A DNA stretch of 64,000 nt from the IMG/VR virus record IMGVR_UViG_3300027759_000056, positions 47,977 to 111,976 of that record. The stretch is one strand, 5' to 3'. The DNA is from a virus. Shown one piece after another: positions 2,740-47,962 of this stretch; the stretch's first letter is position 1; every line of letters begins with the position of its first letter. The notes under the pieces were generated by a model that made no database searches, had not been told where the DNA came from, and saw nothing but the letters and a program-made list of their open reading frames with translations. Position numbers and translations under genes: made by a program.

Positions 2740-3996
2740 ATGAGAAAAGTTTCTAAACAAAACATTAAAGAAGCTGTTGGTGTTCCAGCAAACATTGAAG
2801 TTGCATCACAGAATTTATATAATGACATTGCAAAAAAATTAAAGAATAAAGAAATTGGTCCTGAGGATGTTGTTAAATTCAAATTTATTAACAAAGATGG
2901 TAGATATTCATTTGGAGATTTTAATCCAAATTTTATAACCGCTGAGTTCGGTTTAGGTACTTATTCTGGTGATGCCATAGATAATAGTACCGGAAATAAA
3001 ATAACGGGTGGGTTGGTTCACAGTATGGGATTTTCAAAACAATCAAAATTAAATGATGTATTTGATTTGGTTAGTGTGGATGATGATGGTGGTATTGAAT
3101 TAAATATTGATTATGCTCAACCTAATGATGATGAAGAGTGGTCAGGGAATAAAATTTTGGACACAATGGAAAAAAACAAGTCCAATAGTATATCATCATT
3201 GGGGCATGAATTAAAACATGCTTACGACAACTACAAAAAGCCGGTAGAAAAATTGGTTGATAGAAGCAATTATGCTGGATTTCAAAGGTCAAGGTCAGGA
3301 GTACGACCAATGGACCAATTTATGTTCAATATGTATTTTATAAATCAAATTGAAAATTTGGTTAGACCAACTGAATCATATGTTGAAATGGTTTCTGATG
3401 GTGTTGTAACAAAAGAACAATTCTTAAAGTTTTTGTTAAATTCAAAAACATATAAAACTTTGGTGCAAATACGTGACAGTTCATTTGATAATTTGGTTGA
3501 AGACTTAAAAGGTTACGAAACTGAAATTGATGATTACTTAAATAACACAGTTGATGATTATGATTCATCTTCATTAGACATTGATGATAAGGTAAAATAC
3601 TTTCTAAAAGTATTTGCATTCGTAACAGCACAAAAGGTTCACGAAGTAAGAAAACAAATGGTTTCTCCAAATATTTTTCAAATGTTATTTAGTAGTAGTT
3701 TATTTGGTGGTAATGATGAGGCTGATAAATTTTTAGAAAGTACTTTAGGTGATTTAACCAAAATGATGGACAATCCAAATAAGTTTTACTACACTTCAAT
3801 TGAAAACATGAAAAAAATTGCAATTAAAATGATGAAAAAATTGTCAAAACTATACTCTTTAATTAACAAAGACAAAACAATCACTGTTGAAACAAGAGAC
3901 CCTATGAGTTTTGAGATGGACCAATTGATGAGAAAAACTCAAAAACCAAGAAAGATTGATACCAAGTTGGATGAAAGATTTACCAAAAAAAAATAA
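2740..3996 (+). CDS. hypothetical protein with HExxH zincin motif, possibly virion-associated
   Basis: LGHELKHAYD; N-terminal IKE|A; TATTTAT 5 nt upstream. Confidence 0.6.
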   Translation: MRKVSKQNIKEAVGVPANIEVASQNLYNDIAKKLKNKEIGPEDVVKFKFINKDGRYSFGDFNPNFITAEFGLGTYSGDAIDNSTGNKITGGLVHSMGFSKQSKLNDVFDLVSVDDDGGIELNIDYAQPNDDEEWSGNKILDTMEKNKSNSISSLGHELKHAYDNYKKPVEKLVDRSNYAGFQRSRSGVRPMDQFMFNMYFINQIENLVRPTESYVEMVSDGVVTKEQFLKFLLNSKTYKTLVQIRDSSFDNLVEDLKGYETEIDDYLNNTVDDYDSSSLDIDDKVKYFLKVFAFVTAQKVHEVRKQMVSPNIFQMLFSSSLFGGNDEADKFLESTLGDLTKMMDNPNKFYYTSIENMKKIAIKMMKKLSKLYSLINKDKTITVETRDPMSFEMDQLMRKTQKPRKIDTKLDERFTKKK

Positions 3997-3997
3997 T

Positions 3998-4234
3998 ATG
4001 ATTACAATGGAAGACTTAAAAGATTTTGACTTCACAAATGATAGTAAGGTTGAATTTATGACCAAACCAGGTTTTGTAGAAAAACGTATTCAACAAATGA
4101 TTCAAATTGGTGCGAATGAAGAGTATGAAAAATACAGTGAAGGAATGAGTGATGATGACATTGCAAAATGGAAAGAAGGGTTTGTAGTCGGAGCAAACTG
4201 GTTATTAAAAAATAAAAACGAAAAAAATATTTGA
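3998..4234 (+). CDS. hypothetical protein
   Basis: ATG 3998 directly after the previous stop. Confidence 0.6.
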   Translation: MITMEDLKDFDFTNDSKVEFMTKPGFVEKRIQQMIQIGANEEYEKYSEGMSDDDIAKWKEGFVVGANWLLKNKNEKNI

Positions 4235-4260
4235 CATATCAATAAACTTTTGTATCTTTG
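4230..4260 (+). promoter_or_regulatory. Bacteroidota-type housekeeping promoter (-33 TTTG / -7 TATCTTTG) for tRNA array 1
   Basis: TTTGACA...TATCTTTG (4253-4260). Confidence 0.75.
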
Positions 4261-4283
4261 TACCATATTTAATACTAAACACA

Positions 4284-4379
4284 ATGAAACTCGTAAATAA
4301 ACAAATCGTGAAACATGTCATTCAATTCTGTTCGAATTGGTATCTTCGCGTATTCGTAAGTTCGGGTGTTTTAAGTTAA
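4284..4379 (+). CDS. putative attenuator leader peptide 1 (MKLVNKQIVKHVIQFCSNWYLRVFVSSGVLS)
   Basis: 31-codon ORF between promoter and terminator; codons 10-22 are the 13 amino acids of the downstream tRNAs. Confidence 0.8.
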   Translation: MKLVNKQIVKHVIQFCSNWYLRVFVSSGVLS

Positions 4380-4400
4380 CACATAGTAGCCTTAAAAAGG

Positions 4401-4431
4401 AAACCCGAACTCACAAGGTTCGGGTTTTTTT
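4401..4431 (+). terminator. intrinsic terminator/attenuator upstream of tRNA array 1
   Basis: AAACCCGAAC-TCACAAG-GTTCGGGTTT plus T tract; 5' arm can alternatively pair with AGTTCGGGT (4359-4367). Confidence 0.85.
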
Positions 4432-4437
4432 GTTTTT

Positions 4438-4459
4438 AAGTTCTTTGACATGTTGGTAA
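4438..4459 (+). promoter_or_regulatory. boxA-like antitermination element
   Basis: AAGTTCTTTGACATGTTGGTAA; 20/22 identical to 11690-11711. Confidence 0.6.
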
Positions 4460-4467
4460 TCAAAAAT

Positions 4468-4540
4468 GGGACGGTAGCAAAGATGGTCAATGCGCTGGAC
4501 TGAAAATCCAGTCATGGTGGTTCGAGTCCACCCCGTCCCA
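4468..4540 (+). tRNA. tRNA-Phe(GAA)
   Basis: CTGGA-CTGAAAA-TCCAG. Confidence 0.93.
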
Positions 4541-4548
4541 CAATACAT

Positions 4549-4625
4549 TGGTGATTAGCTCAGTTGGTTAGAGCACTACGCTGATACCGTAGGGGTCACA
4601 GGTTCAAATCCTGTATCACCAACCA
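4549..4625 (+). tRNA. tRNA-Ile(GAT)
   Basis: CTACG-CTGATAC-CGTAG; encoded CCA. Confidence 0.93.
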
Positions 4626-4630
4626 TAAAT

Positions 4631-4701
4631 TACCCTTTCGTCTAACGGCAGGACGAGTGGTTTTGGTCCACTTAGTGGAGGTTCGAATCCTTCAGGGGTA
4701 A
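4631..4701 (+). tRNA. tRNA-Gln(TTG)
   Basis: AGTGG-TTTTGGT-CCACT. Confidence 0.92.
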
Positions 4702-4707
4702 CAATAT

Positions 4708-4781
4708 GACTTCGTAGCTCAATTGGCTAGAGCACCGTGCTTTTAACACGGGGGTTTCGGGTTCAAGTCCCGATGGGGTCA
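4708..4781 (+). tRNA. tRNA-Lys(TTT)
   Basis: CCGTG-CTTTTAA-CACGG. Confidence 0.93.
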
Positions 4782-4787
4782 CAATAT

Positions 4788-4860
4788 CTTTCCTTAGCTC
4801 AGTTGGAAGAGCACTTGGCTTACATCCAAGATGTCGTTGGTTCAAATCCAACAGGAAAGA
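4788..4860 (+). tRNA. tRNA-Val(TAC)
   Basis: CTTGG-CTTACAT-CCAAG. Confidence 0.92.
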
Positions 4861-4867
4861 CAAAAAT

Positions 4868-4949
4868 GCCAGTATCGCATAGCGGCAATTGCGGCGGATT
4901 GTAAACCCGCTCTCATTTGAGTTCGTAGGTTCGAGTCCTACTGCTGGCA
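4868..4949 (+). tRNA. tRNA-Tyr(GTA)
   Basis: loop TTGTAAA; long variable arm. Confidence 0.9.
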
Positions 4950-5011
4950 CAAAACTTATAATCCTCCAAAACTCACTTTTTTTACTAGTTTTGGAGAGTT
5001 ATAGAATATAA

Positions 5012-5085
5012 GTCCATATGCCTGAGAGGTTCAAAGGGACAGTCTGCAAAACTGTTATTCGTTGGTTCGATTCCAACTATGGACT
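5012..5085 (+). tRNA. tRNA-Cys(GCA)
   Basis: ACAGT-CTGCAAA-ACTGT; U73. Confidence 0.9.
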
Positions 5086-5087
5086 CT

Positions 5088-5162
5088 GTGACTGTAGTTC
5101 AGTGGTAGAGCATCGGCTTGTGGTGCCGAGTGTCGTGGGTTCGAATCCCATCAGTCACCCCA
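5088..5162 (+). tRNA. tRNA-His(GTG)
   Basis: TCGGC-TTGTGGT-GCCGA; C73 plus CCA. Confidence 0.93.
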
Positions 5163-5167
5163 AATAC

Positions 5168-5250
5168 GGAAGTGGTCCGAATGGACGAGGACACCGCCTT
5201 GAAAGCGGCTGGCTGTAAAAGGCTTGGGGGTTCGATTCCCTTCTCTTCCG
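5168..5250 (+). tRNA. tRNA-Ser(TGA)
   Basis: CCGC-CTTGAAA-GCGG; long variable arm; G73. Confidence 0.9.
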
Positions 5251-5258
5251 CAAAAAAT

Positions 5259-5333
5259 GGTTCCTTAGTTTAATTGGATAAAACATCTCGCTACGGACGA
5301 GAAGATGTGGGGGTTCGAATCCCTCAGGAATCA
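5259..5333 (+). tRNA. tRNA-Arg(ACG)
   Basis: TCTCG-CTACGGA-CGAGA. Confidence 0.92.
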
Positions 5334-5340
5334 CAACTAC

Positions 5341-5411
5341 GTAAGTGTGGTGTAATGGTAGCATAAAGGTCTCCAAAACTTTTGGCGAGGGTTCGAGTCC
5401 TTCCACTTGCG
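5341..5411 (+). tRNA. tRNA-Trp(CCA)
   Basis: AAGGT-CTCCAAA-ACTTT. Confidence 0.9.
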
Positions 5412-5417
5412 CAAAAT

Positions 5418-5499
5418 ACCAAAGTGGCGTAACGGTAGCCGCATTAGTCTTAGAAACTAATGTCCTAAGGGCGTGTGGGTTCGACTCCCACCTTTGGTA
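5418..5499 (+). tRNA. tRNA-Leu(TAG)
   Basis: TTAGT-CTTAGAA-ACTAA; long variable arm. Confidence 0.92.
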
Positions 5500-5510
5500 C
5501 AAAAATAAAT

Positions 5511-5592
5511 TGGCAGGTAGCCTAGAGGTCAGGCAGCAGACTGTTAATCTGCGACGGAAACGTCTACGTGGGTTCGATTCCCACCCTGTCAG
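5511..5592 (+). tRNA. tRNA-Asn(GTT) with atypical long variable arm
   Basis: GCAGA-CTGTTAA-TCTGC; variable arm GACG-GAAA-CGTC; G73. Confidence 0.88.
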
Positions 5593-5637
5593 CAAAATAT
5601 TTTTTGTAAAGTCAAATATCTGTTGTATATTTGTTGT

Positions 5638-6114
5638 ATGGAAAAGGGGTTTATATCATCTTCAAAAGCAATCAAAGGATATACTGAATCAAAAATTGCC
5701 AAATCTGAAAACAACGATTGTGTTGTTAGAGCAATTGCATCAGCTGCGGATATGGATTATGATTCCGCCCACCAATTCGTTAAAGAAACATTCAATAGAA
5801 AAAATGGTAAAGGTACTTTTGGACTTGGTACTGGTATGAATTTGTTGTCAAAGAATGGTAAACAAATTAACGGTAAAAACATTCAAATTATTTCTGAAGA
5901 ACACAACACCATGTTGTATTATGTGGTAGTTAAAGGTGTAAAAAAATTAAGAGCAACAACAACCGCATCATTCATCAAAAAACACCCTGTTGGTTCTTAT
6001 GTGGTTGTTGTTAAAGGTCATGCGTTTACCATCAAAGATGGTGTTGTTATTGGTAACCCTGATGATGGTAAAAAAATGAAAAAACACATTACAGGGGCTT
6101 GGAAAATTGGATAA
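5638..6114 (+). CDS. hypothetical protein with NDCVVRAI...GHA motif (possible papain-like Cys/His fold)
   Basis: sequence motif; TATATTTG 4 nt upstream. Confidence 0.6.
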   Translation: MEKGFISSSKAIKGYTESKIAKSENNDCVVRAIASAADMDYDSAHQFVKETFNRKNGKGTFGLGTGMNLLSKNGKQINGKNIQIISEEHNTMLYYVVVKGVKKLRATTTASFIKKHPVGSYVVVVKGHAFTIKDGVVIGNPDDGKKMKKHITGAWKIG

Positions 6115-6141
6115 TATGTTTTAACTTTGTATAACAATAAT

Positions 6142-6215
6142 GGTGTGGTAGCTCAGCAGGTAGAGCAGTAGATTGAAACCCTACGTGCCACGTGGTTCGA
6201 TTCCCGTTCACACCA
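6142..6215 (+). tRNA. tRNA-Phe(GAA), second copy
   Basis: GTAG(A)-TTGAAAC-(C)CTAC; imperfect T stem; TAACTTTG promoter 6122-6129. Confidence 0.8.
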
Positions 6216-6221
6216 CAAAAT

Positions 6222-6353
6222 AATTAGATGGGCGTAATGAGGGATGGTACCCGAGTCCCCAAGATTGGAGGTCACCAGTAATAGGTGGCCGTTGCGTCGT
6301 AAGGTTGTCTAATCCGTCCTGAACGGTATTCGGTTCGAGTCCGACTCTAATTA
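6222..6353 (+). ncRNA. tRNA-like RNA (acceptor stem + T-arm) with expanded central domain
   Basis: AATTAGA/TCTAATT acceptor; TCGG-TTCGAGT-CCGA T-arm; internal hairpins. Confidence 0.6.
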
Positions 6354-6431
6354 TGAAAAACTAACCCAGTTTCACAATGAGGGCTGATACCTTCGGAGTG
6401 GGGGTGACGGTCAGGAAAGACTGACAACCAT

Positions 6432-6589
6432 AGTCAGGTGGCGGAATTGGTAGACGATAATGGAGTTATACTATCAAACACAGAGGGTGCGGCGTAGATG
6501 GGAACTACTACATTATCTCTTGGACGCAAGAGAGCAATATAACCCTAACCATTTGGTATAACGTGTAGGTTCGAATCCTACCCTGACTA
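6432..6589 (+). ncRNA. tRNA-Leu-like RNA with ~100-nt insert replacing the anticodon/variable arms
   Basis: AGTCAGG/CCTGACT acceptor; GCGGAATTGGTAGACG D-arm; GTAGG-TTCGAAT-CCTAC T-arm; A73. Confidence 0.7.
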
Positions 6590-6695
6590 CAAAAACATAA
6601 ACTCAAGTACCCACACAGTGGTGAGACGGGCTAAGTAAGATACAATTCCTCGGAACTGGGAGTAGAGAGCTTGAGAGTGTTTTTTAATTAAAAAT

Positions 6696-7379
6696 ATGAA
6701 AAATTTAGTAAAAGCAATTATTTTGGTCATTGTTATAGGAATTTTAGGTTTCATAACAAGTTGGAAAGTTTGGGGTAACAATAAACCAATTGAAGATACC
6801 GTTAAAATTGATACGGTAAAAATTAAACCACAAGACACAATTGTGGATGTTAAAGGAAAATACGTTCTTTTTATTGGTGATTCACATACATCAAATCCTA
6901 ATGGATGGCAAACAATCTTATCCAACAAAACAAAGATGAGAATGAATAACATTTCTGTTGGTGGAAAAACTACAGGTTGGATGTTAGAAAGGGCAAAAGA
7001 ATCAATTCACGAGAATTTAGATTATTGTTTTATCTATGGTGGTGCCAATGATATGTTTAACAGTAAAATTACTATTGAAAGTGCCATAAAGAACATTCAA
7101 AGAATTGTTAATATTTGTAATTCCAAAGGTGTTAAACCAGTTGTGATTACGGGATTTGACCCCCTTACTTGTATTAACACACCAGAAAATCCAAACTATA
7201 AATTTAAGTATTCCAAATTTCAGAATGAATTGATTAAAAAAATTGTTGGTGGAAAGGTGATTAATACTCGTGTGATTACAAAATCGGATTGTTGGGATGG
7301 ACTTTGTCATATGGCACCATCAGGACATAAAAAAATTGGAAATTGTGTTATCAAAGAAATGAAGTTTAAGACATATTAA
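6696..7379 (+). CDS. SGNH/GDSL hydrolase with N-terminal membrane anchor
   Basis: FIGDSHT, GGAND, DGLCHMAPSGH blocks. Confidence 0.85.
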   Translation: MKNLVKAIILVIVIGILGFITSWKVWGNNKPIEDTVKIDTVKIKPQDTIVDVKGKYVLFIGDSHTSNPNGWQTILSNKTKMRMNNISVGGKTTGWMLERAKESIHENLDYCFIYGGANDMFNSKITIESAIKNIQRIVNICNSKGVKPVVITGFDPLTCINTPENPNYKFKYSKFQNELIKKIVGGKVINTRVITKSDCWDGLCHMAPSGHKKIGNCVIKEMKFKTY

Positions 7380-7400
7380 CACATCAGTATATTTATTGAT

Positions 7401-7838
7401 ATGGAAATTACAAAAAGAGACCTTTTAAATGGTTTATCATCAAAATCAAATCCAGCAACTGAAACTGCAGATGTGGTTGATATGATTGCAACATTACTTC
7501 ATTCAAGAAATCAGGCTCATGTTTTTCATTGGCAAACAAAATCACAATCATCATTTGCTGAACATATGGCCTTAGGTACGTATTACGATGAGATTGTTGA
7601 ATTAATTGATAATATTGTTGAAAGTTATCAAGGAAAATACGAAATAATTACTGGTTATAAAACAATTAAAACAGTTGATTATAAATCAACAGAACAAGTA
7701 ATATCTTATTTTAAAGAATTAGATGAAAATATTGAAAAAAATAGAACATCGGTTAAAGAATCCTATATTCAAAATCAAATTGATGGAGTTCAAGAATTGA
7801 TTTACTCAACATTATACAAATTAAGATTCTTAAAATAA
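7401..7838 (+). CDS. ferritin/Dps-like protein (DUF5856 type)
   Basis: QAHVFHWQT...AEHMALGTYYD...ESYQG...TLYKLRFLK. Confidence 0.75.
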   Translation: MEITKRDLLNGLSSKSNPATETADVVDMIATLLHSRNQAHVFHWQTKSQSSFAEHMALGTYYDEIVELIDNIVESYQGKYEIITGYKTIKTVDYKSTEQVISYFKELDENIEKNRTSVKESYIQNQIDGVQELIYSTLYKLRFLK

Positions 7839-7873
7839 TTGACGAATCACGGTTTTAAACATATATTTGCCTC

Positions 7874-8485
7874 ATGGCTAAATACACACTTAATACCTAT
7901 GGATGGTCTTTTGAGGCTATCTGCAAATCTCTAACTGACGAACAAGTCCAAATTATTAAAGACAAAATGGAAGAAGAAGGTTTTTCGGAACTCCATGAAA
8001 TCCGTTTTGATTTGGATGAACTATTGGACCTTGATTTTTGGGACGGTGAAATATTTCACAAAACCGAAGCGTTTGACAATGGTACAATGCACTTTGAACT
8101 TCTTGATGAAGAAGAAAATAAAGTATTAGAGTTTGGTATTGGTGAAACCGCCGACTTATACGAAACAATTGAAGATTTTGAAGAAAAGTATGAGTATAGA
8201 GGTTATAGTCCGATTCCTGAAGAAAAAGGACCAACCAATTTGTATTTAAGCATAGATGAAAACAAAGGTGGGATTTTTACATTCAAACTTGAATCTGATA
8301 CCATACCGACACCATCGGATTTTACTTACTCAACAGGTTCAATAGACACAACTGATGGTGATTATGATTTTATTGACAAAATTTTCTTTAAAGGACAACC
8401 ATTAGAAATTGAAGATTGTTTGGATAATTCAGGGAAATCATCCTCATGTATGATTTATACATTGGATGGTGAAACCATAGAATAA
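7874..8485 (+). CDS. hypothetical acidic protein
   Basis: 203-aa ORF; TATATTTG 4 nt upstream. Confidence 0.7.
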   Translation: MAKYTLNTYGWSFEAICKSLTDEQVQIIKDKMEEEGFSELHEIRFDLDELLDLDFWDGEIFHKTEAFDNGTMHFELLDEEENKVLEFGIGETADLYETIEDFEEKYEYRGYSPIPEEKGPTNLYLSIDENKGGIFTFKLESDTIPTPSDFTYSTGSIDTTDGDYDFIDKIFFKGQPLEIEDCLDNSGKSSSCMIYTLDGETIE

Positions 8486-8489
8486 TTAT

Positions 8490-8563
8490 GGCGAGGTAGC
8501 TCAGTCGGTTAGAGCGCAGGATTCATAACCCTGAGGTGGGGGGTTCAATTCCCTCCCTCGCTA
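8490..8563 (+). tRNA. tRNA-Met(CAT), elongator-like
   Basis: CAGG(A)-TTCATAA-(C)CCTG; GGCGAGG acceptor. Confidence 0.9.
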
Positions 8564-8592
8564 CAAATACATAATTGTGAGTATTTATATAT

Positions 8593-10146
8593 ATGATTTT
8601 ATTTGAAGGTCGTAAGGAAGACTCATTTAAGAAATTCCAAAAAAGTATTGATGGTGAAAGAAAGATGATATCCACTTACATGGATGATGCGTCTGCGTAT
8701 GATTTTTTAATTGGTGAACCTTTTATAAAAGAGACTAATTACAAATATCTTAATGATATTTTGGATTATTATTATACCGTAAATTATTATTCAGGTGAAG
8801 CTGAGCCTTTAGACAAAGACAAAGCAAGAAATCTAATATTTGGAATGAGGAGTGAAATTGACAAGATTGTTGCTTCTTTAGAAACATTTGAAAAACACAA
8901 ATCCAAATTCAAATATCCTGAGTTTAGAAAATACAATACAAATATAGAAGATTTTTTTAAGGAAGCTCAAAAGATTAAAACTGACGTTGAGACCAAACAG
9001 ATTGAAAAATCCGCCAAGAAAGAAATAGATAAAATTTTTGAAAACGATACGTTGTTGGTTATAAAACCAAAATCATTTACAGCATCTTGTTATTATGGTT
9101 CAGGTACAAAATGGTGTACAACAATGAAAGGTAATCCATCGTACTTTAATCAATATAGCTCAAGTGGAAACTTGTATTATTTAATATTAAAAAATGTTGA
9201 TAGAAGTAACAAGTTTTACAAAATGGCTATTCACGCACCAAAGAATAAAAGATTTGATGAAGCTTCAATTTGGTACGATTCAACTGACGAAAGATTAACA
9301 TCAAGAGAAAAAGAATCTGTATTAGCTCATATGCCAAAAGACGCTTATAATGCAATGGTTAATGACTATAAAACTTCATTCCCTGAAGAGAATCCAATAG
9401 ATATTATTTACAAGATAATGCCAAATGTGAACCAAAATGTGGATGATTATGTATATAAATTCAAAGGTGGTGAAATAGAATTGGCAATTGATTCACCTGA
9501 GATTGAAGATACTGACACAAATAGTCTTAGAATTAGTTCTACTTGGGGTATATCGGAACAAAGAAATGGTAAAGAGGTTTATCATGAAGATGGTGCCATT
9601 GATTGTTATTTGGAATCTTATCCAAATCAAGTGTTATTACCAAACTATTACATAGTTAAAATAAGTTATGAGATAATACCATATTCAGATACTAAAATTG
9701 TTGAAAGATATGATGGTACTACAACATTACAACTTGACAACGAAAGAAAAAACGACCCAGAATATGTTAGAATACAACTTAACGGTGCATTAAAACAAAT
9801 ATTTGACGGTTTCCAAAATAAAATGGAGTATAGACTTAGAAATGATGAGGATTTATTAGAGAAATATCCACCAACAAAGTCTAAAGCTTATACCATGTCA
9901 AAATACACCTTCACAGGTAAAGGAGCGTTAACCAAAGCATTTATGGAATATCTTAAAAACATTCCTGAAGGTAAGGTCGGTAATAAGAACGAATTTTTAA
10001 CTCAAATAGGTAGAAGAAGTGGTCCTGGTCAATATAGTAGTTTCTTTTCAGCGTCAAATATGGCAGGTATTAGTGCCAGACAAGGAAAAAGTGGTTTGGT
10101 TAAAGGACCAAACTTTGACAAATTTTACAAGAAAATATTTGAATAA
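8593..10146 (+). CDS. large hypothetical protein (ASCYYGSGTKWC family), probable head-associated; paralog of 18500-20299
   Basis: shared motif; MILFE|GRKED N-terminus; TATTTAT upstream. Confidence 0.7.
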   Translation: MILFEGRKEDSFKKFQKSIDGERKMISTYMDDASAYDFLIGEPFIKETNYKYLNDILDYYYTVNYYSGEAEPLDKDKARNLIFGMRSEIDKIVASLETFEKHKSKFKYPEFRKYNTNIEDFFKEAQKIKTDVETKQIEKSAKKEIDKIFENDTLLVIKPKSFTASCYYGSGTKWCTTMKGNPSYFNQYSSSGNLYYLILKNVDRSNKFYKMAIHAPKNKRFDEASIWYDSTDERLTSREKESVLAHMPKDAYNAMVNDYKTSFPEENPIDIIYKIMPNVNQNVDDYVYKFKGGEIELAIDSPEIEDTDTNSLRISSTWGISEQRNGKEVYHEDGAIDCYLESYPNQVLLPNYYIVKISYEIIPYSDTKIVERYDGTTTLQLDNERKNDPEYVRIQLNGALKQIFDGFQNKMEYRLRNDEDLLEKYPPTKSKAYTMSKYTFTGKGALTKAFMEYLKNIPEGKVGNKNEFLTQIGRRSGPGQYSSFFSASNMAGISARQGKSGLVKGPNFDKFYKKIFE

Positions 10147-10174
10147 TTCTTATTAGTGTCTTATACTTTTGATA

Positions 10175-11443
10175 ATGGAAAAATTATCAAATGTAGGGAA
10201 CAATATTGTGGGCTCTGAAATTATTAAAATCTCACAACAAATCAAAGAAATTGCTAAAACAAAATCAGTATCTAACCTAACCATAGGTGACTTTAATTCC
10301 AAACTATGGCCAATACCCTCAAAATTAAGAGAACACATTCAAGATGCGTATGAGTGGGATTTAACCAACTATCCAAACTCACAAGGAGAACTTGAATTAA
10401 GAGAATCCGTATCCAAACACATTAAACATCAGTTCAATGTTGATTATTCACCTGAAGAAATATTAATTGGTGGTGGAGTTCGTCCATTAATTTATACGGT
10501 TTATAAAGCCACGGTAAATCCAAATGAAGAGGTGATTTATCCTGTACCATCTTGGAATAATAACCACTATTGTTTTTTACATAACGCAAAAAAAGAAGAA
10601 ATTGAATGTACACCTGAAAATTCATTTTTCCCAACCGTTGAAGATGTTGACGGCAGAATAAGTGATAAAACATCATTGGTTTGTATTTGTTCACCGCAAA
10701 ATCCAACAGGTCGTGTAATTGACCCCGAAGTTCTGAAAGGTATTTGTGAGTTGATTGTGAGAGAAAATAAAATCAGGTCAACACAAGTAGGTTCAAGACC
10801 ATTGTATTTGTTCTTTGACCAGATTTATTCTGACATCACCAAAGAAGGTTTGTTTATCCACCCATTAACTTTATGTCCTGAAATCAGAGATTATTTGATT
10901 TGTGCTGATGGTATTTCAAAGTCATTAAACGCAACTGGTGTTCGTGTTGGTTGGTTGTTTGGTCCAAAAGATATTATTGGAAAGATGACCGAAGTTTTGT
11001 CTCACATTGGAGCATGGGCTCCAAAACCTGAACAACGAGCATTGGATGCGTACATCAGAGAAGATTATGAAGATTACATTTCTCACATTAACTATGTAAC
11101 AAAATCGTACGAATTTATATCAGATAAAATATGTGGTAAGTTGGAAGAATTGAAAAACAAAGGTCATAATGTTGATTACCAAAAACCTGATGGTGGAATT
11201 TATATTTCGGTTTATTTGGGTTATGTTCATTCATTTCCAACAACTGAAGAGTATATTTCGTTCTTAATTAATACCTGTGGGTTGGGAATTGTTCCGTTTG
11301 AATATTTTGGTTCAAAGAGTAACAAAGGATGGTTTAGAATATCAATTGGTAATGTTGCCGAGTTAAATTTGGACTCAATTATTAAAACAATTGAAAATTC
11401 TGTACAAAAATCAGTAAGTTATGTAAATTCTTTAGCATTTTAA
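10175..11443 (+). CDS. PLP-dependent aminotransferase class I/II (aspartate aminotransferase-like)
   Basis: SPQNPTG, FDQIY, DGISKSLNATGVRVGW (PLP lysine), WFRIS. Confidence 0.9.
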   Translation: MEKLSNVGNNIVGSEIIKISQQIKEIAKTKSVSNLTIGDFNSKLWPIPSKLREHIQDAYEWDLTNYPNSQGELELRESVSKHIKHQFNVDYSPEEILIGGGVRPLIYTVYKATVNPNEEVIYPVPSWNNNHYCFLHNAKKEEIECTPENSFFPTVEDVDGRISDKTSLVCICSPQNPTGRVIDPEVLKGICELIVRENKIRSTQVGSRPLYLFFDQIYSDITKEGLFIHPLTLCPEIRDYLICADGISKSLNATGVRVGWLFGPKDIIGKMTEVLSHIGAWAPKPEQRALDAYIREDYEDYISHINYVTKSYEFISDKICGKLEELKNKGHNVDYQKPDGGIYISVYLGYVHSFPTTEEYISFLINTCGLGIVPFEYFGSKSNKGWFRISIGNVAELNLDSIIKTIENSVQKSVSYVNSLAF

Positions 11444-11500
11444 TTGACACTTTTCAAAAGTTTGATATATTTAATAAGAAATTAAATAATAATACATTCA

Positions 11501-11569
11501 ATGATTACCATCAACATATTCGGCACACCAGCAACAGAGGCTGATACTTCCAAAGTGGAGATGGGATAA
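11501..11569 (+). CDS. putative attenuator leader peptide 2 (MITINIFGTPATEADTSKVEMG)
   Basis: 22-codon ORF ahead of a terminator; core GTPATEADT matches tRNA array 2. Confidence 0.75.
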   Translation: MITINIFGTPATEADTSKVEMG

Positions 11570-11590
11570 TATTGTAAAAAAATATCTTAC

Positions 11591-11622
11591 AAAAACCCAT
11601 CTCAAAAGGATGGGTTTTTTTT
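11591..11622 (+). terminator. intrinsic terminator/attenuator upstream of tRNA array 2
   Basis: AAAAACCCATC-TCAAAAG-GATGGGTTTTT plus T tract; CCCATCTC can alternatively pair with GAGATGGG (11558-11565). Confidence 0.85.
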
Positions 11623-11653
11623 GTGTTTGTTTGGCAGTATCAAAAAAATGTAT

Positions 11654-11661
11654 TAACTTTG
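11654..11661 (+). promoter_or_regulatory. Bacteroidota-type -7 promoter element
   Basis: TAACTTTG with TTTG ~20 nt upstream. Confidence 0.65.
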
Positions 11662-11689
11662 TAGTGTTGAAAAACACAACAGAACAAAA

Positions 11690-11711
11690 AAGTTCTTTGA
11701 CGTATTGGTAA
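11690..11711 (+). promoter_or_regulatory. boxA-like antitermination element
   Basis: AAGTTCTTTGACGTATTGGTAA. Confidence 0.6.
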
Positions 11712-11720
11712 GAAAAAATT

Positions 11721-11792
11721 GCTCGGTTCATCTATCGGTTAGGATGCTAGGTTTTCATCCTAGAAAGAGGGGTTCGACTCCCCTACCGAGTA
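11721..11792 (+). tRNA. tRNA-Glu(TTC)
   Basis: CTAGG-TTTTCAT-CCTAG. Confidence 0.92.
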
Positions 11793-11801
11793 CAAATAAA
11801 T

Positions 11802-11876
11802 AGCGGGGTGGAGCAGAGGTAGCTTGCGAGGCTCATAACCTTGAGGTCACAGGTTCGAATCCTGTCCCCGCTACCA
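11802..11876 (+). tRNA. tRNA-Met(CAT), initiator-like body with A1-U72 pair
   Basis: AGCGGGGTGGAGCAG...; loop CTCATAA; CCA. Confidence 0.88.
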
Positions 11877-11884
11877 AAATAAAT

Positions 11885-11958
11885 CGCGAGTTGGTGTAAT
11901 GGTAACATAATGGGCTCATAACCCATAGTTCCGAGTTCGAGTCTCGGGTTCGCAACCA
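11885..11958 (+). tRNA. tRNA-fMet(CAT)
   Basis: C1:A72 mismatch; GGG/CCC anticodon stem; CCA. Confidence 0.88.
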
Positions 11959-11961
11959 ATG

Positions 11962-12172
11962 GATGTAACTTGGGTCGTGCCACATTGGCCACTTTTACAT
12001 CAAGAGTCAGAAGGATTAGAGGTGGCCGTGACTACTCTGACTCGAATACAAAGTACCACGATGCTTACCGTAAGAACAGCACAGTGGTAGATAGAGTTAA
12101 CGTGAATAACCCAAGGCATAAGCGTTAACAACCCCCAATAAGACTATTTGGCCAATAGAAACTGTTGGGGTT
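11962..12172 (+). ncRNA. unassigned multi-hairpin, pseudoknotted RNA
   Basis: five hairpins and two loop-loop complementarities (see findings). Confidence 0.6.
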
Positions 12173-12179
12173 ATTAAAA

Positions 12180-12251
12180 GCGAGTGTAGTATAAAGGCTA
12201 TTACTCCAGCCTTCCAAGCTGGATATGCGAGTTCGATTCTCGCCACTCGCT
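12180..12251 (+). tRNA. tRNA-Gly(TCC)
   Basis: CCAGC-CTTCCAA-GCTGG; U73. Confidence 0.92.
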
Positions 12252-12256
12252 CAAAA

Positions 12257-12453
12257 AGAACCTTTTCTTACGGAAGTCCGATTAGCGCGGATGAAAGGAA
12301 CCTTGACTTCACGGGAGTAGCTACCCAATTGAAGCTTGAATGACTCAAGGTACTCTGTAATGGACCCTGCTCTATGGTGCACACATAACAGGTGATGGGG
12401 AACAAACCATCGGTAAAATCTAAACCCACGGTGAGCGTGGAAGGAAAGTTTCT
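12257..12453 (+). ncRNA. unassigned ~200-nt structured RNA
   Basis: closing helix AGAACCTTTTCTT/AAGGAAAGTTTCT; several internal hairpins; no ORF. Confidence 0.55.
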
Positions 12454-12460
12454 TTTTTTT

Positions 12461-12535
12461 GCGGGAGTAGCTCAGGGGTAGAGCTTCAGTTTACCAAACT
12501 GAAAGTCGAAGGTTCGAATCCTTTTTCCCGCTCCA
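12461..12535 (+). tRNA. tRNA-Gly(ACC)
   Basis: TCAGT-TTACCAA-ACTGA; GCGGGAG acceptor; U73 plus CCA. Confidence 0.88.
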
Positions 12536-12603
12536 AATGTAAATCTTAAAAAGGGCCCTTCCGTGTTTATCACGGCTTGTTGGGCCCGGGTTTACTAACT
12601 TAC

Positions 12604-12675
12604 GGTCCTGTAGTTAATCGGCTATAATATTGCCCTGTCACGGCAAAGTGCCGGGTTCGATTCCCGGTGGGACCG
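12604..12675 (+). tRNA. tRNA-Asp(GTC)
   Basis: TTGCC-CTGTCAC-GGCAA; G73. Confidence 0.92.
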
Positions 12676-12686
12676 CAAAAATAAAA

Positions 12687-12756
12687 GGGCCTGATGTCAA
12701 CGGCAGACCGTTTGATTTGCAATCAGAACGTATGGGTTCGATTCCCACAGTGTCCA
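12687..12756 (+). tRNA. tRNA-Ala(TGC)
   Basis: TTGA-TTTGCAA-TCAG; G3.U70; irregular acceptor/D arm. Confidence 0.8.
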
Positions 12757-12765
12757 CAAACAAAT

Positions 12766-12841
12766 AGCGTAGTAGAGGAGTCAGGTTTATCTCATCTGCT
12801 TTGGGAGCAGAGGCACGCTGGTTCGAATCCAGTCTACGCTA
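12766..12841 (+). tRNA. tRNA-Pro(TGG)
   Basis: TCTGC-TTTGGGA-GCAGA. Confidence 0.9.
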
Positions 12842-12874
12842 CTAATTATAAAAAAAATTTACTATCTTTGTAAC

Positions 12875-13162
12875 ATGAAAAACATATTAAAAGACCCCCG
12901 ATTTTATTTTTTCCTATGGATTGTTCTATCTATTATTCTTGCCATTACGTTAGGAGCTTGTAAACAGAAACCTTTGATTGAAAAAGGTGATGTAGTTGAA
13001 AAGTTCGTTATTGATTCAATGGTTCAATTGCCACCTCACAGCACAATTGAACTTGACAGGAAGTACAAGTATTTCATGTCAGACAGCAGTGAGTTTACTT
13101 CTTTGAAGAAATATAACATTGGTGATACAATCACTTATGTTTACAAAAAACAAGGAAAGTAA
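12875..13162 (+). CDS. putative lipoprotein/membrane protein
   Basis: hydrophobic N-terminus ending in LGAC lipobox. Confidence 0.65.
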   Translation: MKNILKDPRFYFFLWIVLSIILAITLGACKQKPLIEKGDVVEKFVIDSMVQLPPHSTIELDRKYKYFMSDSSEFTSLKKYNIGDTITYVYKKQGK

Positions 13163-13181
13163 TATATATTAAAACATAAAT

Positions 13182-13258
13182 GCCTGAATAGCTTTAATTG
13201 GTAGAGCACCTGACTTGTAATCAGGGGGTTGGCGGTTCGAGTCCGTCTTCAGGCTCCA
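13182..13258 (+). tRNA. tRNA-Thr(TGT)
   Basis: CCTGA-CTTGTAA-TCAGG; CCA. Confidence 0.93.
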
Positions 13259-13270
13259 AACACAATAATC

Positions 13271-13456
13271 ATGGACCCCAAGACTCAAATGACGCAGGAA
13301 GATTTTTTAACTGAATTGACTGAATTAAGTCAGTCATTTGGATTGTATGGTGAAAATGACAACTTTGGTGTTGATGGAGTTTACATACATACCCAACCAG
13401 AAATGTACATATGTCCGTGGGATAATACTCAAGGGGATTGTACTCATTTCAACTAA
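13271..13456 (+). CDS. small hypothetical protein
   Basis: MDPKTQMTQEDF..., between two tRNAs. Confidence 0.5.
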   Translation: MDPKTQMTQEDFLTELTELSQSFGLYGENDNFGVDGVYIHTQPEMYICPWDNTQGDCTHFN

Positions 13457-13461
13457 TATTT

Positions 13462-13535
13462 GGACGGGTAGCTCAACAGGTTAGAGCAGGATGCTTATAT
13501 CATCAAGGTTGGGGGTTCAAGTCCCTTCTCGTCTA
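13462..13535 (+). tRNA. tRNA-Ile(TAT)
   Basis: GATG-CTTATAT-CATC; standard D and T arms; A73. Confidence 0.85.
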
Positions 13536-13549
13536 CTAAAAATTTAATT

Positions 13550-14122
13550 ATGAGCAACGAATATAATCAATGGTATTGGAAACTTTATAGATGGTTCAGA
13601 TGGGACGCTAAACATCTTCATCGTGATATTGCACAGGGTTTTAGAAACCTATGGAAATGGTTACCAATAATTTGGAAAGACCGTGATTGGGATGACCATT
13701 TTATTTTTGAAGTTTTGAAATTCAAAATCAAGAATACCGCCAAGTATACAGAAAAAAAACAAAGGTTTGTTGGTTGGGAAAAAGAAGTTAGATATATGAG
13801 AATATGTGAAACTTTAATTGATAGAATTCAAAATGAGTATTATCAGATGGAGTATCAAGATTATCATGATTTTGATATTAGTACGGTACCAACAGAAGAT
13901 GGTTTGTATGAAGTTGTCTTTGATGTTAAACGTGATGATACTGATGAATTTGTTAAAAAATACCCACACGCTCTAAGAAAAGCAAAAAAAGACCCAAGAT
14001 TTAAGAGTTATTTTAAGAATGAAAGAAATGGTTATCTTGCTGTGGGTATGATTAGACACGAAAAAGCAAGAAAACTGTTATTCAAAATTTTGGAACAAAG
14101 AATTGAGCGTTGGTGGGATTGA
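13550..14122 (+). CDS. hypothetical Trp-rich phage protein
   Basis: WLPIIWKDRDWD...IERWWD. Confidence 0.75.
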   Translation: MSNEYNQWYWKLYRWFRWDAKHLHRDIAQGFRNLWKWLPIIWKDRDWDDHFIFEVLKFKIKNTAKYTEKKQRFVGWEKEVRYMRICETLIDRIQNEYYQMEYQDYHDFDISTVPTEDGLYEVVFDVKRDDTDEFVKKYPHALRKAKKDPRFKSYFKNERNGYLAVGMIRHEKARKLLFKILEQRIERWWD

Positions 14123-14150
14123 TTTTTTTCACTATATTTGTATAACAAAT

Positions 14151-14224
14151 GGACCTTTAGCTCAGTTGGTCAGAGCGGCTGACTCATAATCAGTAGGTCG
14201 TAGGTTCAAGCCCTACAGGGTCCA
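14151..14224 (+). tRNA. tRNA(CAT), probably Ile2 (lysidine type)
   Basis: GCTGA-CTCATAA-TCAGT; GGACCTT acceptor resembles Ile2 bodies. Confidence 0.8.
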
Positions 14225-14227
14225 CAA

Positions 14228-14413
14228 ATGAAACAAAAAATGTATAGACCAAAAATTGACCGAGTTATTGGTGGAGTATGTTCTGGTATTGCATACCACG
14301 TAGACATTGACCCAATTTTTGTTCGAGTATTATTCTCAATATTAATTTTTAGTCCACTCCCAATTATCTTTGCTTATTTATTATTTTGGTTTTTTACACC
14401 AGGTGGTGAATAA
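14228..14413 (+). CDS. pspC: PspC-domain membrane protein
   Basis: DRVIGGVCSGIAYHVDIDPIFVRVLF signature. Confidence 0.85.
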   Translation: MKQKMYRPKIDRVIGGVCSGIAYHVDIDPIFVRVLFSILIFSPLPIIFAYLLFWFFTPGGE

Positions 14414-14480
14414 AAAGTTTTAATACCTGATTTATATCAGTTTTTTTTGTATTTATTTAGTAAATAACACTTTTTTACTA

Positions 14481-15107
14481 ATGGAATGGGCTGATATTCT
14501 TAAAACATTAATAACCGCTGTATCATCAATTGTTGTTGCATTGGTTGCTGCAGGGTATTTTAGAAAAAATTCTGAAAAAAACAAAGAAGAAAAAAGCCGT
14601 GGTAAATTAATGGAACAAATTCAACGTGATGAATTGGTTCATTTTACATTAAGAGAAATTAGAAGAAAATTTAATTCAGATAGAGTTTATATTATTCAAT
14701 TTCATAATGGTGGAAGTTTTTATACTCAAACACCAATGCAAAAAGCATCCATTACATATGAAAGATGTTCAGATGGATTAGAAAAATTTTCAGAAAGATT
14801 TCAAAATATTTTAATTTCAAATCATAATTGGTATTTTACCGAAATTATTAACAATCGTTGTTTTTTTTCAGACATTGAAACACAGGTCAAAGATTTACCT
14901 GAAAAAAGTTTATTAAAAAATTATGGTAATTACGCACATGCTGGAGTACCAATTTATGATGTTGAAAAAAGATTAATTGGTGTTATGTGTTTATCTTGGG
15001 TATTTTCTGATTTACAAATAAATGATATACATGATGGTAAATTCAATGATGAGTTCAAAAAACAACTTTATGATGATGCCAATTCTTTAAGACCATATCT
15101 TGTATGA
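14481..15107 (+). CDS. putative holin (T4 T-like: one TM plus GAF-like domain)
   Basis: N-terminal TM; RVYIIQFHNG; GVPIY..LIGVMCL GAF-like strands; near an M23 peptidase. Confidence 0.55.
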   Translation: MEWADILKTLITAVSSIVVALVAAGYFRKNSEKNKEEKSRGKLMEQIQRDELVHFTLREIRRKFNSDRVYIIQFHNGGSFYTQTPMQKASITYERCSDGLEKFSERFQNILISNHNWYFTEIINNRCFFSDIETQVKDLPEKSLLKNYGNYAHAGVPIYDVEKRLIGVMCLSWVFSDLQINDIHDGKFNDEFKKQLYDDANSLRPYLV

Positions 15108-47221: not shown

Positions 47222-47962
47222 TTATTCAATTATGCCATTAAGAACCACATAATATAACTTCTTAAATCTTTTCATTGCTGTTCTAATTTCTTTGGTTGAA
47301 AGGTTTGTCATTTCCCTTATCGATAATAAAATAATGTTTTTATTAAACTTGTTATTATCACTACCTAAGAAAATAGTTTTGTAATTTTCAAATAACTCTA
47401 ACAATGCAATTCCTAATTTTGTTTCATTGTCGGTTAGTTGTTCATTTTCCAAATATCTTTTTAATTCATCTAAAAATCCTTGAATTACATCATCAGCTTC
47501 TGTTTTTTCAAATTCCATATAATAAACCATGTCCGGTCTATTTTCTAAATTTGAAGAAATATCTTCATACGAAACTTTTCTGTTTGTATCTTTTTGGTCT
47601 TTAATAATTTGACCCATTAAATAATTCTTACAAATTGTACCAAAATAAGAATACGCTTTTTTGTTTTTTGACGGTTTGAATTTATCAACTTTAGTCATTA
47701 AAAACGAATGAGTATCTGTGTGAATATCGATAAAATTCATATCTTTACGATATAATTTATACCTTCTAATGATTGACGAAATCATCTTATCCAACGGACC
47801 TCTTAAAAATTCATTGTAGATTTGATTCTTTTCTTCAAAAGTTTCTGCCGTGAGATACATTCTCACGGCATTCTCTTCTACAACATCAAAATAGTTTGTG
47901 TTCGTTGCTTTCCTACCTCTTTTTTTGGAAGTAGTTGTTGTCGTTGTTTCTGATGAAAACAT
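47222..47962 (-). CDS. putative phage late sigma factor (gp55-like)
   Basis: NYFD...KVDKFKP...KAYSYFGTICKNYL resembles sigma region 2; C-terminal HTH-like segment. Confidence 0.6.
   Translation of the reverse strand: MFSSETTTTTTSKKRGRKATNTNYFDVVEENAVRMYLTAETFEEKNQIYNEFLRGPLDKMISSIIRRYKLYRKDMNFIDIHTDTHSFLMTKVDKFKPSKNKKAYSYFGTICKNYLMGQIIKDQKDTNRKVSYEDISSNLENRPDMVYYMEFEKTEADDVIQGFLDELKRYLENEQLTDNETKLGIALLELFENYKTIFLGSDNNKFNKNIILLSIREMTNLSTKEIRTAMKRFKKLYYVVLNGIIE

Follow-up and report, generated by a model that had tools for sequence, protein, structure and literature searches.

What switches on the tRNA genes that a phage carries, and could their expression be tied to the supply of the tRNAs that they encode? 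To our knowledge, the timing and dosing of a phage's own tRNA expression are essentially unknown, and we know of no tRNA genes in general that are under leader-peptide attenuation. The question is raised by IMG/VR virus record IMGVR_UViG_3300027759_000056, a phage sequence of 111,976 bp and 32% G+C that is estimated to be 37% complete, and in particular by its 3′ 64 kb, the 64,000-nucleotide stretch analysed here and referred to as the window. The whole record has 29 tRNA genes, 26 of them inside the window, where a block of 13 is preceded by a short open reading frame (ORF) and a terminator in a unit that we call cassette 1. We consider it probable, from its sequence and that of its relatives, that cassette 1 is a ribosome-mediated (leader-peptide) attenuator gating a phage tRNA operon, in which the control codons are a roster of the downstream tRNAs. 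An upstream ORF, an intervening terminator, a maskable antiterminator that excludes the terminator, and codons matching what the operon supplies are all present.

A roster of 13 amino acids ahead of 13 tRNA genes

The elements of cassette 1 all lie on the plus strand. The promoter (4231–4260; 10 of 12 positions match) consists of TTGACA at 4231–4236, a 16-nt spacer and TATCTTTG at 4253–4260, which we assign as a Bacteroidota-type TAnnTTTG −7 element; its sequence is unchanged in the relatives L101 and L115. The leader ORF (leader 1, 4284–4379, 31 codons) begins 24 nt past the −7 element, and the ORFs homologous to it stay open in all relatives. It is followed by an intrinsic terminator (terminator 1, 4397–4431) of 15 pairs and a T-run, by the first copy of a 22-nt boxA-like element (4438–4459), which ends 8 nt before the first tRNA, and by array 1 (4468–5593), which encodes Phe, Ile, Gln, Lys, Val, Tyr, Cys, His, Ser-TGA, Arg-ACG, Trp, Leu-TAG and Asn tRNAs. 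The array was called with ARAGORN and also with Rfam, and its intergenic gaps are 1–10 nt, except for one 61-nt hairpin spacer. Array 1 depends on read-through, because only 36 nt, with no promoter motif, separate terminator 1 from the first tRNA. The original prediction, made from the letters of the window, had proposed this promoter, 31-codon ORF, terminator, boxA-like site and set of 13 tRNAs, and each was recovered where it had been placed.

Codons 10–22 of leader 1 (4311–4349) read K-H-V-I-Q-F-C-S-N-W-Y-L-R, which are the 13 amino acids of array 1, once each, with one codon per isotype. This permutation had been claimed at the outset, and we reproduced it from the ORF translation and the ARAGORN calls. 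With amino-acid frequencies taken from the phage's own 90 long ORFs, the probability that a run of 13 residues is a permutation of the array 1 set is 2.8 × 10−9, and 6 × 10−4 such runs are expected over the six frames of the 112-kb record. Across the leader as a whole, 29 of the 30 residues after the start fall within the array 1 set (p = 1.3 × 10−5), and A, D, E, P and T are absent, as had been noted.

The correspondence extends to the codons. Arg, Ser and Leu are represented in the roster by CGC, TCG and CTT, with an extra Leu codon, CTC, earlier in the leader at codon 3. All are rare in the phage genes, where CGC accounts for 2% of Arg codons, TCG for 4% of Ser codons, and CTT and CTC for 15% and 1% of Leu codons, respectively, AGA (65% of Arg) and TTA (52% of Leu) being favoured. 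CGC, TCG, CTT and CTC belong to the boxes decoded by Arg-ACG, Ser-UGA and Leu-UAG of array 1. The suggestion that the leader matches the codon boxes of its tRNAs despite an AT-rich preference for TTA and AGA holds when set against the codon usage of the phage genes.

A second cassette with the complementary set

The layout of cassette 1 is repeated in cassette 2 (11444–11711), on the same strand and upstream of another tRNA block with a complementary amino-acid set. Its promoter (11444–11471) matches at 11 of 12 positions and has TG ahead of the second hexamer. Leader 2 (11501–11569) has 22 codons, is rich in G, T, P, A, E, D and M, and contains one ATA codon. Its last three codons hold the antiterminator strand (11558–11565), complementary to CCCATCTC at 11596–11603 in the 5′ arm of terminator 2 (11591–11622; 12 pairs and a T-run). 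The second copy of the 22-nt boxA-like motif (11690–11711) then leads into array 2 (11721–13536), comprising Glu, Met, Met, Gly-TCC, Gly-ACC, Asp, an Ala-UGC-like tRNA, Pro, Thr and Ile-TAT, and broken up by structured spacers and two small ORFs. The Ala-like tRNA (12687–12756) has the anticodon UGC and a G3:U70 pair, and its Rfam score of 29.5 bits is above the gathering score of 29.

All eight amino acids of array 2 are found in leader 2, which includes a run of nine codons that each specify G, T, P, A, E or D. Leader 1, devoid of five of these as described above, has a single G. A Fisher 2 × 2 test of leaders 1 and 2 against sets 1 and 2 gives p = 4.8 × 10−6.

Leader content follows array content in related cassettes

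Relatives were sought by scanning IMG/VR with the 19-nt core of the boxA-like motif, which identified 110 loci, 28 of them with the motif 24–34 nt before a tRNA array. Cassettes were detected as an ATG ORF of 12–50 codons ending at most 75 nt before a terminator, with a tRNA at most 320 nt after the terminator. This yielded 34 cassettes laid out like cassette 1 and distributed over 27 phage sequences, among them the record analysed here; they comprise 29 distinct leaders, 23 of which are non-redundant at 70% identity. The leaders mostly begin M-K, and leaders, terminator sequences and arrays vary widely among the cassettes. Closer relatives came from a second scan, patterned on the antiterminator and terminator of the window itself, and one of them sits on a 294,914-bp contig. 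A blastn search of a phage GenBank collection returned tRNA-to-tRNA matches only, with no annotated relative of the leader region.

The original prediction had proposed comparing leader codons with array content in relatives; in the 23 non-redundant cassettes the two co-vary at the level of both amino acids and codon boxes. As the allowed inter-tRNA gap is widened from 160 to 1000 nt, 80 of 81, 113 of 114 and 173 of 175 array isotypes (Met left out) are present in the array's own leader. Shuffled leader–array pairings average 64, 89 and 138, and none of 20,000 shuffles reaches the observed values. The match holds inside the larger of two leader types alone (n = 18, p ≤ 1.5 × 10−4), the smaller type (n = 5) having too few members. 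Codon boxes were scored for Leu (TTR/CTN), Arg (CGN/AGR), Ser (TCN/AGY) and Ile (ATY/ATA). The leader holds a codon of the box in 52 of the 53 cases in which the array has the isoacceptor, compared with 90 of 179 in which the array lacks it, and the choice between the CGN and AGR boxes is correct in all 12 arrays with an Arg tRNA.

The match is also seen among close relatives. In L101, L115 and L240, the array is that of the window minus exactly tRNA-Ser-UGA, leaving a His–Arg gap of 3 nt. The DNA of these three loci is identical to that of the window from the promoter through leader codon 16, and codon 17 is CAG, not TCG, the single difference in the roster. L247 has the same CAG leader and the same array as far as the locus reaches. 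L245 likewise has CAG at codon 17 and no tRNA-Ser, yet its leader and array differ elsewhere as well. In L243, W-F takes the place of W-Y, and the locus has neither a Tyr codon nor a tRNA-Tyr. Taken alone, the TCG/CAG difference would be modest evidence.

The origin of the additional tRNA-Ser-UGA in the window was considered separately. We rejected the idea that it arose by recent duplication of the second Ser-UGA gene in the phage: in the best global alignment the two (85 and 89 nt) share only 61 identical positions, no better than the comparison with Ser-GCT.

A further feature of the 23 non-redundant leaders (loci L010–L115) is a preference for G-ending codons in boxes read by tRNAs with U34: CCG makes up 12 of 20 Pro codons, TCG 13 of 35 TCN codons and GAG 11 of 19 Glu codons. 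Wobble codons that are decoded slowly may have been selected for, or the excess may be imposed by structure.

Mutually exclusive RNA structures

The antiterminator 5′ strand of cassette 1 (region 2, 4359–4375) lies inside leader codons 26–31. Within it, AGTTCGGGT (4359–4367, codons 26–28) is the exact complement, over 9 nt, of ACCCGAACT at 4403–4411, the part of the terminator 5′ arm that is common to terminator and antiterminator; 1 of 1000 shuffles matches this. A nested 7-nt helix pairs TTTTAAG (4369–4375) with CTTAAAA (4391–4397). Both helices had been predicted, and every coordinate and pairing was confirmed.

Since leaders of different families do not align, conservation of the switch was assessed by comparing each cassette's own strands with swapped ones. 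The 3′-terminal 40 nt of the ORF and 12 additional nt were compared with the terminator 5′ arm, and a perfect Watson–Crick run of at least 6 nt was counted. Of the 23 non-redundant cassettes, 19 have a run of 6–11 nt with their own arm, whereas swapped non-homologous arms give such a run in 13 of 420 pairs (Mann–Whitney p = 2 × 10−13). Because more than 10 unrelated arm sequences keep the pairing, the antiterminator and terminator strands change together, which is the compensatory pattern that the original prediction had suggested looking for.

Both conformers were folded, as had also been proposed. Folded up to the terminator loop, the transcripts of cassettes 1 and 2 adopt the antiterminator (−17.2 and −14.7 kcal/mol, respectively), and the fold is the same whether a ribosome is stalled in the roster or no ribosome is present. 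When the footprint of a ribosome at the stop codon is masked, the terminator alone is obtained (−18.6 and −14.7 kcal/mol, respectively). The antiterminator is thus the first structure to form in these models, and the terminator follows once the ribosome is at the stop codon, which lies 19–34 nt ahead of the terminator stem in all cassettes. As modelled, the geometry is that of classical attenuation, in which finished translation leads to termination and a lagging or absent ribosome leads to read-through.

Proposed mechanism

The second cassette, the co-variation of roster and array, the co-variation of the switch strands and the folds all support the trp/his-type attenuation of the tRNA array put forward in the original prediction. 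Transcription would start at the Bacteroidota-type promoter, and a ribosome would load on the 31-codon leader. On reaching the stop codon it would cover 4359–4375, allowing the terminator at 4397–4431 to form, and polymerase would halt before the tRNAs. Were the ribosome to lag in the roster, through scarcity of a charged tRNA or slow decoding, or were no ribosome loaded, 4359–4375 would pair with 4391–4411 and no terminator would form. Polymerase would then continue past the boxA-like element into the 13 tRNA genes. The new tRNAs would hasten translation of the leader and so close the operon, making the cassette a negative-feedback gauge of tRNA supply. The tRNAs of array 1 would, on this mechanism, probably be made only when ribosomes decode the rostered codons slowly. 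Cassette 2 would do likewise for the complementary tRNA set, probably with an extra constitutive promoter. Translation of the leader, the direction of the switch, read-through on stalling and the feedback are what we infer from the arrangement of these elements.

If this is true, the roster leader would be the first attenuator to sense its operon's own product, and the most multivalent described, with 13 amino acids compared with two or three in the thr and ilv leaders. It would link tRNA depletion, whether by host shut-off, codon-usage mismatch or tRNA-cleaving defence, to the synthesis of replacement tRNAs in a way that is simple and testable. Operon boundaries in phage tRNA islands could be recognised by the sequence of the cassette, which might also supply a compact component for sensors that report how fast chosen codons are decoded.

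That host anticodon nucleases such as PrrC, RloC and PARIS are the natural trigger is speculation. More tentatively than the attenuator itself, and with the balance of our judgement against it, we raise the possibility that the cassettes form a self-updating surveillance circuit, in which the block would be switched on within one round of leader translation if any rostered tRNA were destroyed, whether anticodon nucleases of the host or host shut-off by the phage itself were responsible, and the roster would be rewritten whenever a tRNA is gained or lost. Such a circuit, if real, would sense tRNA-targeting immunity directly at the level of transcription, and would be a general tRNA homeostat of a kind not known in cells.

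Points against attenuation by individual tRNAs, and alternative explanations

Several observations weigh against the reading just given. Each of the two deep leader types is a family of homologues, and the cassettes therefore do not all represent independent events. The TCG/CAG change falls in the loop of a conserved hairpin, the least-constrained sequence there, with only the third base paired. The near-identical leaders of L051 and L087 precede different arrays. Leaders are usually supersets of their arrays, with a precision of 0.24–0.51 that results in part from truncated loci, and L246 keeps a roster of 12 amino acids before only Phe, Ile and Gln tRNAs, followed by other genes. Finally, the roster codons occur once each, which gives one pause site per scarce tRNA, whereas classical attenuators use runs of codons.

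The superset leaders, the roster of L246 and the once-each codons would be accommodated if the cassette were a real attenuator that gauged overall translation capacity, that is, ribosome availability or elongation speed, and not single tRNAs, with the roster a weak or historical correlate. Delays at once-each codons would sum along the roster, the leaders contain amino acids beyond those of the array, and L246 has retained its roster although its array was reduced; in addition, the nascent folds make read-through the default in the absence of a ribosome. We nevertheless think this explanation improbable, although it is the best of the alternatives, since a capacity gauge would not need isoacceptor-matched codon boxes in 52 of 53 cases. 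Nor would it need two complementary rosters per genome, or a Ser codon that appears together with a tRNA-Ser gene.

Promoters of other kinds within the window raise a different objection. Array 2 probably has its own promoter downstream of the attenuator, and therefore a constitutive, attenuator-independent input, because a good TAnnTTTGTA motif (TAACTTTGTA, 11654–11663, plus strand) lies between terminator 2 and boxA and is retained in L043; the type 2 relatives L081 and L092 are without the insert. The single tRNA genes for Phe (6142) and Met (14151) have direct TAnnTTTGTA promoters (6122–6131 and 14133–14142) about 10 nt upstream and no leader, and it follows that not every phage tRNA is under attenuator control. 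Such promoters would be in keeping with a small ORF that is spurious, or encodes a stand-alone micropeptide with its own terminator, and with arrays that are transcribed from elsewhere. We regard this as very unlikely. It is at odds with the mere 36 nt, devoid of a promoter motif, that terminator 1 leaves before array 1. Where the boxA motif heads an array and does not follow another tRNA, moreover, an ORF and a terminator were called in all viral contigs but L108, in which the ORF is present and the hairpin weaker. The match between codons and tRNAs and the complementarity of ORF end and terminator arm would also be left unexplained.

Least credible is a switch of reverse polarity, in which finished leader translation would permit read-through and the synthesis of tRNAs would be confined to periods of healthy translation; the geometry is that of trp- and his-type attenuators, and a ribosome terminating 19–34 nt before the stem covers the antiterminator strand and not the terminator core.

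Relationship to known regulatory systems

Leader-peptide attenuation of the kind proposed for the cassettes is long established in amino-acid operons. Besides trpL, hisL, pheL and leuL, multivalent leaders include the thr leader (Thr and Ile) and the ilvGMEDA leader (Ile, Leu and Val). The phage cassettes share with these a short ORF with diagnostic codons, a terminator, an antiterminator at the ORF end that a terminating ribosome would mask, and, on the proposed mechanism, read-through on lag. They differ in that they would govern tRNAs where the others govern biosynthetic enzymes, and in presenting up to 13 amino acids once each where the others have runs of one to three. In addition, they are phage-borne and followed by boxA, and their product, tRNA, would act directly on the sensor. 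The mechanism, of the trp, his, thr and ilv type, is known; what differs is the tRNA-gene target, the once-each roster and the proposed feedback by the product. The Rfam Thr_leader family (RF00506) scores 27.8 bits at 4362–4434 and 26.1 bits at 11494–11624, well short of its gathering score of 55.

T-box riboswitches similarly tie genes for translation supply to the state of a specific tRNA. They bind the uncharged tRNA directly through a specifier codon, with no ribosome, in contrast to the phage cassette, which would sense by means of a translating ribosome. No Rfam match to a T-box was found at E ≤ 1 in 3500–15000.

In function, the closest parallel is the trn operon of Anabaena sp. PCC 7120, a long tRNA array that translational stress induces (PMC8421152, PMC10272220). 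There too an accessory array stays off until translation is impaired, but it is the repressor TrcR that controls it, through direct repeats overlapping the promoter (PMC8421152, PMC10272220). The terms leader peptide and attenuation are absent from both papers, and we set the operon aside as a repressor-controlled one and not an attenuator.

Phage tRNAs have been reported to counter tRNA-cleaving defences, namely PARIS AriB and retron effectors (PMC11464382, PMC11555353), and in these cases, as is proposed here, they substitute for host tRNAs lost in infection. The available portions of these two reports concern the tRNAs themselves and describe no sensing circuit that switches tRNA genes on; the countermeasures that they document would offer a plausible setting for a depletion sensor. 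Full-text literature searches returned no paper describing leader-peptide attenuation of tRNA genes, and one match, PMC3082878, mentions a tRNA operon only in passing.

The boxA-like motif and the host

The 22-nt boxA-like motif occurs twice in the window, against 0.05 copies expected, and has a core that we take to resemble boxA of the Escherichia coli and Bacillus consensus. In a bacterial genome collection, the 19-nt pattern gave 124 matches in 120 loci, mostly Bacteroidota among the titles listed. Of these matches, 28 precede 23S rRNA (at a median of 78 nt from its 5′ end), 3 precede 16S rRNA and 15 lie at contig ends. In L175, a Chitinophagales genome, Rfam identifies 16S rRNA, two spacer tRNAs, the motif and then 23S rRNA, in that order. 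The sequence of the phage motif is the one found in the rRNA operons of the probable host phylum. In its likeness to boxA/Nus antitermination of rRNA, the phage element shares the string GTTCTTTGAC-T-TTGGTA, which in Bacteroidota is found about 30–80 nt before 23S rRNA and also before 16S rRNA; it differs in heading arrays of tRNAs only, in a phage and after the proposed leader-peptide attenuator. This suggests that the untranslated array transcript might receive Nus-type protection at the motif. The TAnnTTTGTA promoter motif is also over-represented, with 20 occurrences in the window compared with 8.4 expected, and the rRNA-type boxA motif and TAnnTTTG promoters together support a Bacteroidota host.

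The placement of the motif is variable. In L010, L045/L047 and L096, one tRNA lies between the terminator and boxA, and in some phages (among them L027, L040, L063 and L074) the motif recurs inside arrays after other tRNAs. It follows that boxA is not strictly tied to the attenuator.

Other features linked to the tRNA genes

On the minus strand of the record, at 47527–47637 in record coordinates and about 340 nt before the start of the window, a hairpin and a T9 run lie downstream of a 36-codon ORF, an arrangement that may constitute a third attenuator. We rejected it as part of the tRNA-attenuator system, since two promoter motifs and an HNH endonuclease ORF intervene before tRNA-Leu-UAA.

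Array 2 includes two unusual isoacceptors, a tRNA-Gly with the anticodon ACC (12461–12535) and a tRNA-Ile with the anticodon UAU (13462–13536), the latter near the last of four CAU tRNAs (14151–14225). Leader 2 contains GGC and ATA codons that match these two tRNAs. The 208-nt spacer between Gly-TCC and Gly-ACC (12253–12460) contains an Rfam match to freshwater-1 RNA (RF02979) at 12356–12418, with 73.8 bits against a gathering score of 72, and a long helix closes the fold of the entire spacer (z = −1.9). In L043 the tRNA-Gly genes are 4 nt apart, so that this locus is without the freshwater-1 spacer; a search on "freshwater-1" found nothing. A second spacer, of 221 nt between tRNA-Met and tRNA-Gly-TCC (11959–12179), is richer in G+C and folds at −61.4 kcal/mol (z = −3.0; 1 of 200 shuffles as good). 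It matches no Rfam family, and the corresponding gap in L043 is 92 nt. It may be an unknown structured RNA that is released by tRNA processing.

The G+C-rich region at 6216–6700, after tRNA-Phe (6142–6216), contains tRNA-like T-arms, and an Rfam tRNA match of 30.5 bits extends over 158 nt (6432–6589). ARAGORN calls are also odd at the matching place in relatives. These features suggest a tRNA interrupted by an insertion or intron, or else tRNA-like RNAs of another sort.

The 61-nt spacer of array 1, between tRNA-Tyr and tRNA-Cys (4951–5011), forms a strong hairpin (−16 kcal/mol, z = −4.9, equalled by 0 of 200 shuffles), and a spacer of equal length is retained in L101, L115 and L240. The hairpin is probably not a terminator, because it has no T-run, and it may be a processing signal.

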